The notes: generated from the letters alone by a model not told the origin. DNA of 30,951 nt from a virus (IMGVR_UViG_2778261530_000010); one strand, 5' to 3'. Shown: positions 13,696 through 15,125, counted from the stretch's first letter. Made by a program: numbers and translations.

Positions 13696-13800
13696 ACGCT
13701 TCTTACTTTGTAATTTTCGCACCTTCCGGTAATTCCATAGGTTAAAAAAACCTCATAATCTCTGACAATTTGATCCTACCCACGTAATATGGACACAGGC

Positions 13801-14667
13801 CTAAGCGAGGTTCTGGTTTTCAAATTGTTCCGGACTGAGGCCGCCACACCAACTGTGCCGCCGCCACCGATTGTAATCACATTCGATATAATTAAACACC
13901 GTTGCCCGCATTATTTCCCGGCTGATAAAGTGTTCTCCATGGATACATTCCACTTTCAGCGAATGAAAGAAGCTTTCCACGCAGGCATTATCGTAGCAGC
14001 AACCTTTTGCGCTCATACTTCCACGCAGATTATGCCGTTTCTGTTGCGCCTGATAATCTGCTGAACAGTACTGGCCTCCACGGTCCGTGTGAACGATAAC
14101 GTTCCGGGGCCTCTTACGCCGCCACAGCGCCATCTGCAGGGCATCGCAGGCCAGTTGCGCCGTCATGCGTGGCGACATTGACCAGCCAATAACGGCACGT
14201 GACCACAGGTCAATGACCACTGCCAGATACAGCCAGCCTTCATCTGTACGTAAGTACGTGATGTCTCCTGCCCACTTCTGGTTCGGGCCACTGGCGTAAA
14301 AATCCTGCTCCAACAGATTTTCTGACACAGGCAGGCCGTGTGCGCGGTAGCTGACCGGGCTGAACTTCCGGGAGGCCTTTGCCCTCAGTCCCTGACGGCG
14401 CAGGCTTGCCGCCACGGTTTTTACGTTAAAGGGGTAACCCTGAGCACGCAGTTCATCCGTCAGGCGTGGGGCACCGTAACGCTGTTTTGACCGGGTAAAA
14501 GCCGCGAGGACAACGCTGTCGCAGTGTTGGCGGAACTGCTGACGCGTGCTTATCCTTGTCCGCCGCTGACACCACGTATACCAGCCGCTGCGGGCCACCC
14601 GGAGCACGCGGCACATTGCTTTGATGCTGAACTCAGCCTGATGTTTTTCAATAAAGACATACTTCAT
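13801..14667 (-). CDS. insF: IS3 transposase OrfB (DDE integrase domain)
   Basis: Translation [30 protein letters not shown]... recognised as IS3 InsF. Confidence 0.9.
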
Positions 14668-14963
14668 TTCAGGCGCTTCGCGAAGTATGTCGCGGCCTTT
14701 TGGAGGATAGCCAGCTCTTCATCCCGTTCTGCCAGCTGGCGTTTGAGACGTGCAATCTCGGTAGACATCTCCAGTTCACGTTCAGAAGACGTCTGCTGAT
14801 TTTGCTGTTTACTGCGCCAGTTGTAGCGCTGTGATTCATACAGGCTGAGTTCACGGGCTGCGGCAGTAACACCGATGCGTTCAGCAAGCTTCAGGGCTTC
14901 ACTGCGAAATTCAGGCGAATGCTGTTTACGGGGTTTTTTACTGGTTGATACTGTTTTTGTCAT
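14664..14963 (-). CDS. insE: IS3 transposase OrfA (HTH)
   Basis: [31 protein letters not shown]... recognised as IS3 InsE; overlaps insF, consistent with an OrfAB frameshift fusion. Confidence 0.9.
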
Positions 14964-15125
14964 GTGAGTCACCTCTGACTGAGAGTTTACTCACTTAGCC
15001 GCGTGTCCACTATTGCTGGGTAAGATCAATTATCATCCACACAGGATAAAGACATCTGACCAGATTGCAGTATTAAAAGCTCTCATGCAGACTACGCACC
15101 CCATATCATATACAAGGTTATACTG

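Follow-up and report, generated by a model that had tools for sequence, protein, structure and literature searches.

An IS3 insertion in the ybcV-cos interval of lambdoid prophages, probably an old and apparently tolerated passenger of a circulating module

Described IS3 copies and the element in the window

The closest described relatives of the element studied here are the IS3 copies of Escherichia coli K-12, for example IS3C, which resides in the early-region gene renD of the cryptic lambdoid prophage DLP12. Kilobase-scale foreign inserts in the non-essential Rz-cos stretch of the late transcript are known from engineered phages. Basically, lambda recombinants that carried ybcV::Kan from DLP12 "were active" (PMC3945230), and lambda bor::kanR has served as a phage with full lytic and lysogenic function (PMC11379933). 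For the right end of IS3, Fuqua & Wagner (2025) described outward promoter boxes and found that the last 50 bp look like a pause site preceded by a rut-like stretch, and removal of these 50 bp approximately doubles outward transcription. An earlier report of an outward promoter in this end is cited in the same paper. With respect to IS elements in phages, the survey of Leclercq, Gilbert & Cordaux (2012; PMC3429520) counted 92% of phages as IS-free, and phages were argued to be poor IS vectors. A literature search directed at IS elements in the late operons of Stx phages found nothing specific.

We analyzed a stretch of viral DNA of 30,951 nucleotides (IMGVR_UViG_2778261530_000010), referred to as the window. 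Positions 13771-15028 on the minus strand hold a complete IS3 of 1258 bp, which starts with TGATCCTACCC and ends with GGGTAAGATCA. The termini read TGATC...GATCA, with the 5'-TG start and CA-3' end of IS3. The terminal inverted repeats, located by a repeat finder and by comparison of the termini, are imperfect (28 of 40 positions matching; 73% complementarity according to the repeat finder). IRL (14989-15028, minus strand) is the end toward ybcV, while IRR (13771-13810, minus strand) faces cos and Nu1 and lies inside the terminal 50 bp for which a damping effect on outward transcription has been reported.

Both reading frames of the element are open. orfA (14664-14963, minus strand) encodes 99 amino acids and carries L46R compared to K-12 InsE. 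orfB (13801-14667, minus strand) encodes 288 amino acids with a DDE/rve domain (Pfam matches rve, E = 2e-27, rve_2 and HTH_21) and carries L209Q and K285Q compared to K-12 InsF. The 3' portion of orfA contains an A4G slippery motif (14697-14701, minus strand), which shortly precedes the 4-nt overlap with orfB; a -1 frameshift here would yield OrfAB. Indeed, the RefSeq annotation includes a programmed frameshift. Only five of 1258 bases differ from K-12 IS3C (99.6% identity), resulting in the three amino-acid changes named above. The element thereby combines the size and ends, the two-frame layout with slippery motif and rve domain, and near-identity to the reference copy, and every testable feature of IS3 membership is present in it. 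The preliminary description of this DNA had called the element an intact IS3 of 1258 bp, and this holds in full. Scans of the whole window with Rfam and tRNA models found no RNA genes. In read-through RNA, the predicted hairpin at the 5' end of IS3 that would sequester the orfA ribosome-binding site was no better than in shuffled sequences (z = -0.87).

Compared to IS3C, the window copy shares the length, the orfA/orfB layout, the A4G motif, the rve domain and the 3-bp duplication, and both reside in a lambdoid prophage. They differ in the three amino acids and in location, with IS3C in the early region and the window copy in the late-region interval between ybcV and cos. DLP12 itself is a decayed remnant, whereas the prophage of the window keeps its downstream morphogenesis genes intact. 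The engineered lambda phages resemble the window in carrying their insert in the same stretch of the late transcript. However, these inserts are drug-resistance cassettes inside bor or ybcV and are transcribed under lambda Q, whereas the window has a natural IS upstream of ybcV and its own Q allele.

Insertion site and late operon

IS3 is flanked by two copies of ATT, at 13768-13770 on the left and 15029-15031 on the right. In E. coli C41 the uninterrupted site reads GACAATT|ATCATCC (C41 locus 6524-6583) and contains one ATT. This single copy identifies the ATT pair as a true target-site duplication rather than a 1-in-64 coincidence, and a 3-bp duplication that is single when the site is empty is typical of IS3. 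The matching duplication named in the preliminary description was thus verified, and related prophages lacking IS3, proposed there as the reference for the uninterrupted sequence, have a single ATT. When the window sequence minus IS3 and one ATT was used as an empty-site query, 16 complete E. coli genomes each aligned across it without a break. Precise removal of IS3 restores GACAATTATCATCC, while the junction created by the insertion is TCTCTGACAATTTGATCCTACCCACG. The IS3 end next to ybcV is 97 bp away from its ATG (15126), and the other end lies 465 bp from the cosN-like dodecamer, in agreement with the distances given earlier (97 bp and about 460 bp).

On the IRL side follow a ybcV homologue (DUF1398; 15126-15536, plus strand; Pfam PF07166, E = 4e-44) and the lipoprotein gene bor (Lambda_Bor; 15761-16054, plus strand; Pfam PF06291, E = 1e-30). 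Beyond these, the lysis cassette (16372-17579, minus strand) comprises a GH108 endolysin gene (16372-16917) and two holin genes (16919-17197 and 17187-17579), all recognized by Pfam. On the other side lie the cosN-like site GGGCGGCAGCGG (13294-13305, minus strand) and the terminase genes Nu1 (small subunit; 12569-13117, minus strand; Pfam PF07471, E = 2e-83) and A (large subunit; 10681-12597, minus strand), both of them open. The cosN-like site was assigned by alignment to the lambda cos sequence. In this alignment, the flanking cos sequence is conserved and the cosN-like site, cosB, Nu1 and A, which together make up a lambda-type cos module, are all undisturbed by IS3. The neighbors listed in the preliminary description (ybcV, bor, lysis genes and the cos side) were therefore confirmed by their Pfam domains.

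The toxin, lysis, cos, Nu1, A and head genes are all located on the minus strand, as in a Q-dependent late operon. Upstream on the same strand we found the Q antiterminator gene (19156-19503; Pfam PF06530, E = 7e-46), a pR'-like promoter (TTGATG-18-TATCAT; 19187-19158, promoter scan) and a strong tR' terminator with a 10-bp GC-rich stem and a T-run (AAACCCGCCGCCACCTGGCGGGTTTTTTT; 19080-19056, terminator scan). This Q-pR'-tR' arrangement (19503-19056) is the classical start of a late operon. The head and proximal tail reading frames form a contiguous, open series on the minus strand that runs from Nu1 to the tape-measure gene, whose stop codon forms the window edge and sets how far the reading of intact genes extends. 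From this geometry it follows that transcripts from pR' must cross IS3, in the sense direction with respect to the transposase genes, in order to reach Nu1 and A. The path of the late transcript had been proposed in just this way before, and the positions of Q, pR' and tR' upstream and of Nu1, A and the head genes downstream of IS3 support it.

Distribution and movement of the insertion

The same junction, with identical orientation and duplication, was found in 9 of 5,426 complete E. coli genomes, namely EC11, VG35A2, ARS-C101, XJ34, XJ6-3, N61, VG48B2, VG12A2 and 1303. The carrier strains are mostly of bovine or farm origin and come from China, Switzerland, the USA, Japan and Germany. An exact 26-nt junction probe additionally detected the insertion in three IMG/VR proviruses and four metagenome contigs. 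An assembly artefact as the source of the insertion is ruled out by the identical junction in many independent closed genomes. RefSeq labels this copy as "IS3-like element IS3 family transposase" in all nine genomes; IS3 is a standard element and the exact insertion is already annotated there, and nothing about it is new in kind.

In every complete carrier genome for which the flanks were retrieved, the prophage is integrated between potB and potC. Its early, immunity, replication and cargo regions vary among the carriers EC11, VG35A2, ARS-C101, XJ34, N61 and 1303, and the head and tail alleles of 1303 and VG12A2 are distinct (terminase only ∼77% identical at the nucleotide level). The insertion is thus associated with two or more head/tail allele sets and with several early regions. 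In six carrier genomes the head genes from FI to Nu1 are annotated as intact. The morphogenesis genes are deleted in three of the nine carriers (XJ34, XJ6-3 and VG48B2), hence the near-identical prophages of these strains cannot be transferring now.

The window itself is a mosaic. Its segment from 4739 to 17579 shares 99.1% identity with the potB/potC prophage family, and at 17579/17580, the start of the first holin gene, the sequence switches to a backbone of the type found in the EC9682 prophage. Past this point the window differs from the potB/potC family in the Q, toxin, replication and integrase regions. In the EC9682 prophage a tyrosine integrase of the window's type adjoins a DUF72 gene and yecN. 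The two parts together were found in no single record among the complete E. coli genomes compared. Flanking sequences that match the window with at least 99% identity all contain IS3; identity falls to ∼98% for the nearest sites that are empty. Together with the distribution and the varied mosaic partners, this leaves the view of the preliminary description that the insertion is "fairly recent" unsupported. The insertion is present in nine genomes, three proviruses and four contigs with differing early regions, head/tail alleles and integrase; it is fixed in the lineage of the module, which has been recombined repeatedly since, and is not recent.

To follow the module relative to its hosts, 11.4 kb of chromosome beside the prophage (potC to mfd) were compared with the 4.46-kb IS3 module, which extends from the start of Nu1 via IS3 to the holin start. 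The chromosomal segment separates the strains into three groups ({XJ34}, {EC11, VG35A2, ARS-C101} and {N61, 1303, VG48B2}), which are 19-31 substitutions per kb apart. In the IS3 module, XJ34, EC11, VG35A2, ARS-C101, N61 and VG48B2 differ by only 0-1.6 per kb, and the modules of XJ34 and N61 are identical. Conversely, 1303 is separated from N61 and VG48B2 by 0.09-0.35 differences per kb in the chromosome, yet its module is 15 per kb away. Along 22 kb of prophage, a sliding count between XJ34 and VG48B2 mostly stayed at 0-2 differences per kb, with up to 13 in two windows of the count, and it rose to 16-26 per kb in most windows outward from the potC junction. The near-identical module in divergent chromosomes indicates that the IS3-bearing prophage entered its hosts as a discrete unit after the insertion, and the sequence comparison points to at least three divergent chromosomal backgrounds that received it in this way. 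Infection followed by site-specific integration would be the simplest route for this spread.

Taken together, we consider it probable that IS3 is an old, inherited and apparently tolerated passenger in a circulating prophage module and not a crippling event of recent date. In this scenario, an ordinary and structurally intact IS3 would have transposed once into the non-essential ybcV-cos interval of a lambda-like phage and would then have been inherited within a module composed of cos, IS3, ybcV, bor and the lysis genes. This module would now circulate by phage transfer and by homologous recombination among prophages of mostly bovine and farm E. coli. In the window, it would have been joined at 17579/17580 to another backbone that brings its own Q, pertussis-like toxin genes and a different type of tyrosine integrase. 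Tolerance of IS3 would be explained by the fact that no essential gene is disrupted, that cos is left intact, that only 1.26 kb are added, and that the element is located, and crossed in the sense direction, in the transcript of a Q-modified RNA polymerase which is resistant to pause and terminator sites.

Alternative origins and possible effects on transcription

The shared insertion might also result from an insertion hot spot, at which IS3 would have entered different prophages in independent events and not once in a common ancestor. In favor of this, the insertion site is AT-rich, and up to 10 base differences separate individual IS3 copies at the ybcV-cos site. However, the eight loci examined all agree in position, orientation and ATT duplication, the flanking DNA on either side is 99.8-100% identical among six carriers, and the presence of IS3 in all of the closest flank matches argues in the same direction. 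That IS3 itself holds more differences than its flanks (5 versus 0 per kb, XJ34/VG48B2) is more simply attributed to gene conversion from other IS3 copies. With junctions and flanks identical, a hot spot was rejected and independent insertions are highly improbable. A second alternative concerns the effect of a single inherited insertion. The preliminary description had suggested that IS3 could be polar on the morphogenesis genes; the lysis genes would then be expressed and Nu1, A, head and tail genes under-expressed, and the host would be lysed with few or no particles. In line with this, IS3 separates the lysis cassette from Nu1 on the strand that is transcribed, and late transcripts leave IS3 via its right end, i.e. 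the end with the pause-like, rut-associated element, which lowered outward transcription ∼1.9-fold in a reporter (Fuqua & Wagner 2025). Furthermore, INPHARED contains no isolated phage with the insertion, and three carriers are devoid of morphogenesis genes. On the other hand, the literature describes the Q-loaded complex as insensitive to sites of pausing and termination, and lambda Q is a proven suppressor of polarity. A scan of both strands of IS3 for intrinsic terminators found none. In the window, the reading frames of FI, E, D, C, B, W, A and Nu1 are uninterrupted and show a signature of purifying selection (pN/pS 0.12-0.29 versus other IS3-bearing prophages), although these ratios derive from small counts (11-13 non-synonymous and 14-35 synonymous differences) and some of the differences are probably recombination imports. 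The IS3-bearing prophage has, moreover, spread as a unit into the divergent chromosomes described above and its module has been recombined into a backbone with a different integrase, while lambda remains viable with the ybcV::Kan and bor::kanR cassettes in the same interval. We therefore regard a polar block as improbable, and the claim of polarity was not upheld. If this phage had a Q weaker than lambda Q, transcription might be attenuated to some extent.

A third possibility is local, and it is compatible with IS3 as a tolerated passenger. By splitting the upstream region, the insertion may have lowered or rewired the expression of ybcV, and of bor if both are co-transcribed, and promoters in the right end of IS3 or hybrid promoters may give rise to new low-level transcripts, which would run toward cos and Nu1 or antisense through the transposase gene. 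Similarity to DLP12-type ybcV loci sets in ∼24 bp left of the insertion, and an alignment of six ybcV upstream sequences shows a conserved TTGACA (DLP12, O157 and PhiR29_1 types) or CTGACA hexamer (window type) that ends 0-3 bp from the target ATT. In the window this CTGACA (13762-13767, plus strand) forms the 5' edge of the conserved block and is now cut off by IS3 from the 97 bp that are left in front of ybcV, which makes an effect on ybcV plausible. A promoter scan detected a hybrid site with 9 of 12 matches (CTGACA-N17-TAATAT; 13762-13790, plus strand); it reads into IS3, its TAATAT lies inside IRR and its spacing arose by chance. In the right end of IS3, latent promoter-like boxes within 13822-13896 on the minus strand (TTTAAT-15-TACAAT at 13870-13896 and TTGGTG...CAATTT at 13822-13852) correspond to the motifs of Fuqua & Wagner (2025). 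These boxes and the terminal 50-bp damping region are unchanged in the window copy, where as sequence motifs they are aimed at cos and Nu1 and not at ybcV and bor. Several observations speak against this possibility. The Cappable-seq supplement has no entries near the K-12 ybcV coordinates, and neither candidate -10 after the hexamer is convincing in the uninterrupted sequence. Six promoter-like sites were found in the region versus 5.9 expected from shuffles, so that single sites of the scan serve as leads only. The wild-type IS3 ends (150 bp), including the left end, had no detectable promoter activity in the published sort-seq reporter assay. The 224 bp that separate ybcV from bor could accommodate an independent promoter for bor. 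Overall, changed local transcription appears rather unlikely, albeit less so than the polar block, and altered expression of ybcV would be the only local effect to be expected. The preliminary description had stated that the outward-facing end of IS3 abuts the ybcV-bor promoter. Part of this is correct, since the insertion directly follows the TTGACA-like hexamer upstream of ybcV. The end located there is, however, IRL, which carries the inward transposase expression signals, whereas the latent outward promoters belong to the right end and face cos and Nu1.

Lambda bor is expressed in lysogens. In the window, where the preliminary description assumed a ybcV-bor operon, the scan detected no terminator-like site between ybcV and bor, and nucleotide homology to DLP12-type loci stops just after ybcV, which suggests that ybcV and bor may be separate modules.

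Possible passage of the insertion in an infectious phage

Returning to IS3 as a tolerated passenger, we infer that Q-loaded polymerase would read through the element and that particles may still be produced at present. The lambda genome has a size of 48.5 kb. The potB-potC prophages with IS3 reach ∼44-47 kb, as estimated from the annotated loci, and packaging size is thus not limiting. Among the isolated phages of INPHARED, none contains IS3 at the ybcV-cos site; the only hits were a diverged fragment from Salmonella and, at the end of the phi467 record, an unrelated and incomplete IS3. This collection thus offers no direct support for particle formation by phages with the insertion. We put the chance that a still-infectious lambdoid lineage carries IS3 at slightly below even. 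Such a lineage would represent a natural temperate-phage shuttle of an intact IS between divergent E. coli lineages, in which induction would flood IS3 with sense read-through RNA.

The window insertion agrees with the survey of Leclercq, Gilbert & Cordaux (2012) in that it avoids essential genes and, with 1.26 kb, stays inside the size margin discussed there. In contrast to that survey, this IS3 seems to have moved from host to host together with its prophage. If particle production were confirmed, it would be a documented natural case of phage-borne IS transfer; a still-infectious lineage would run contrary to the view of phages as poor IS vectors and would be a natural system in which to ask whether IS carriage is made tolerable by Q antitermination. 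Beyond annotation the importance of the insertion is little, and the biology is ordinary. An IS in a lambdoid late transcript need not, however, be read as inactivating. The orthologous insertion is also a handy marker for exchange of the cos-ybcV-bor-lysis module among prophages, including the backbone with the pertussis-like toxin. In this backbone, the two genes between the Q cassette and the holins are nearly identical to those of the E. coli pertussis-like toxin ArtAB, the structure of which is solved (PDB 4Z9C).

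Toxin genes and the mosaic junction

The late operon of the prophage carries an AB5 toxin gene pair of the pertussis-like type (17638-18985, minus strand), located directly downstream of the Q-pR'-tR' cassette. Both subunits have matches in the PDB. The A subunit matched 4Z9C_A (E = 2e-126), and the B subunit matched 5WHU and 4Z9C_B (E = 1e-65 and 2e-52, respectively). The pair encodes a pertussis-like AB5 toxin that is almost the same as E. coli ArtAB/EcPlt, for which a structure has been solved. The ArtAB-like pair holds the same place after Q-pR'-tR' that is held by the Stx genes in Stx phages.

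The first holin gene has a sharp recombination junction (17579/17580) at its start codon. DNA left of this junction is 99.1% identical to the prophage family sited between potB and potC, and DNA right of it shares 99.4% identity with EC9682-like prophages. The integrase of the EC9682 prophage adjoins a DUF72 gene and yecN. The combination of left and right parts was found in none of the 5,426 genomes of the complete E. coli set.

Lysis genes

The stretch that follows the GH108 endolysin gene (16055-16371, minus strand) lacks recognisable genes for Rz/Rz1 spanins. The sole open reading frame there encodes 47 aa (16046-16189, minus strand), contains a lipobox-like LEVVIC motif and runs into the 3' end of bor, which it overlaps.

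Insertion sequences and deletions in the late region

The IS3 copies of all carriers differ from each other at 10 positions or fewer. When the XJ34 and VG48B2 prophage loci were compared (20528-21527), the orthologous IS3 copies had 5 differences, while the flanking prophage DNA had 0 per kb. This excess of differences in the orthologous copies over the surrounding prophage DNA points to gene conversion, with other IS3 copies within each genome as donors. In a relative, the E. coli MS 119-7 locus, the site between ybcV and cos is empty and another IS3-family element lies within the GH108 endolysin gene (5195-6423). Insertion sequences are a recurrent feature of this interval of the late region.

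Several IS3-bearing prophages carry deletions that begin in Nu1 or A and take out head and tail genes. These deletions, in XJ34 (19377-19947), VG48B2 (16917-19427) and a further IS3-bearing locus (L018), are independent or nested, and their end points do not coincide with the IS3 ends. The window itself is bounded by the stop codons of the tape-measure gene (1-3) and the integrase gene (30949-30951), and therefore distal tail genes and attachment sites fall outside its view.

An inverted repeat between cos and IS3

The interval between cos and the IS3 site contains a perfect 16-bp inverted repeat (13660-13696; TTATAGAAGTCCTTCA ctgta TGAAGGACTTCTATAA) with a folding energy of -24.7 kcal/mol (z = -5.6). 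On neither strand does the repeat form a canonical terminator. In the MS 119-7 locus, which is 89% identical, two positions of the repeat differ on both arms alike, and pairing is preserved.
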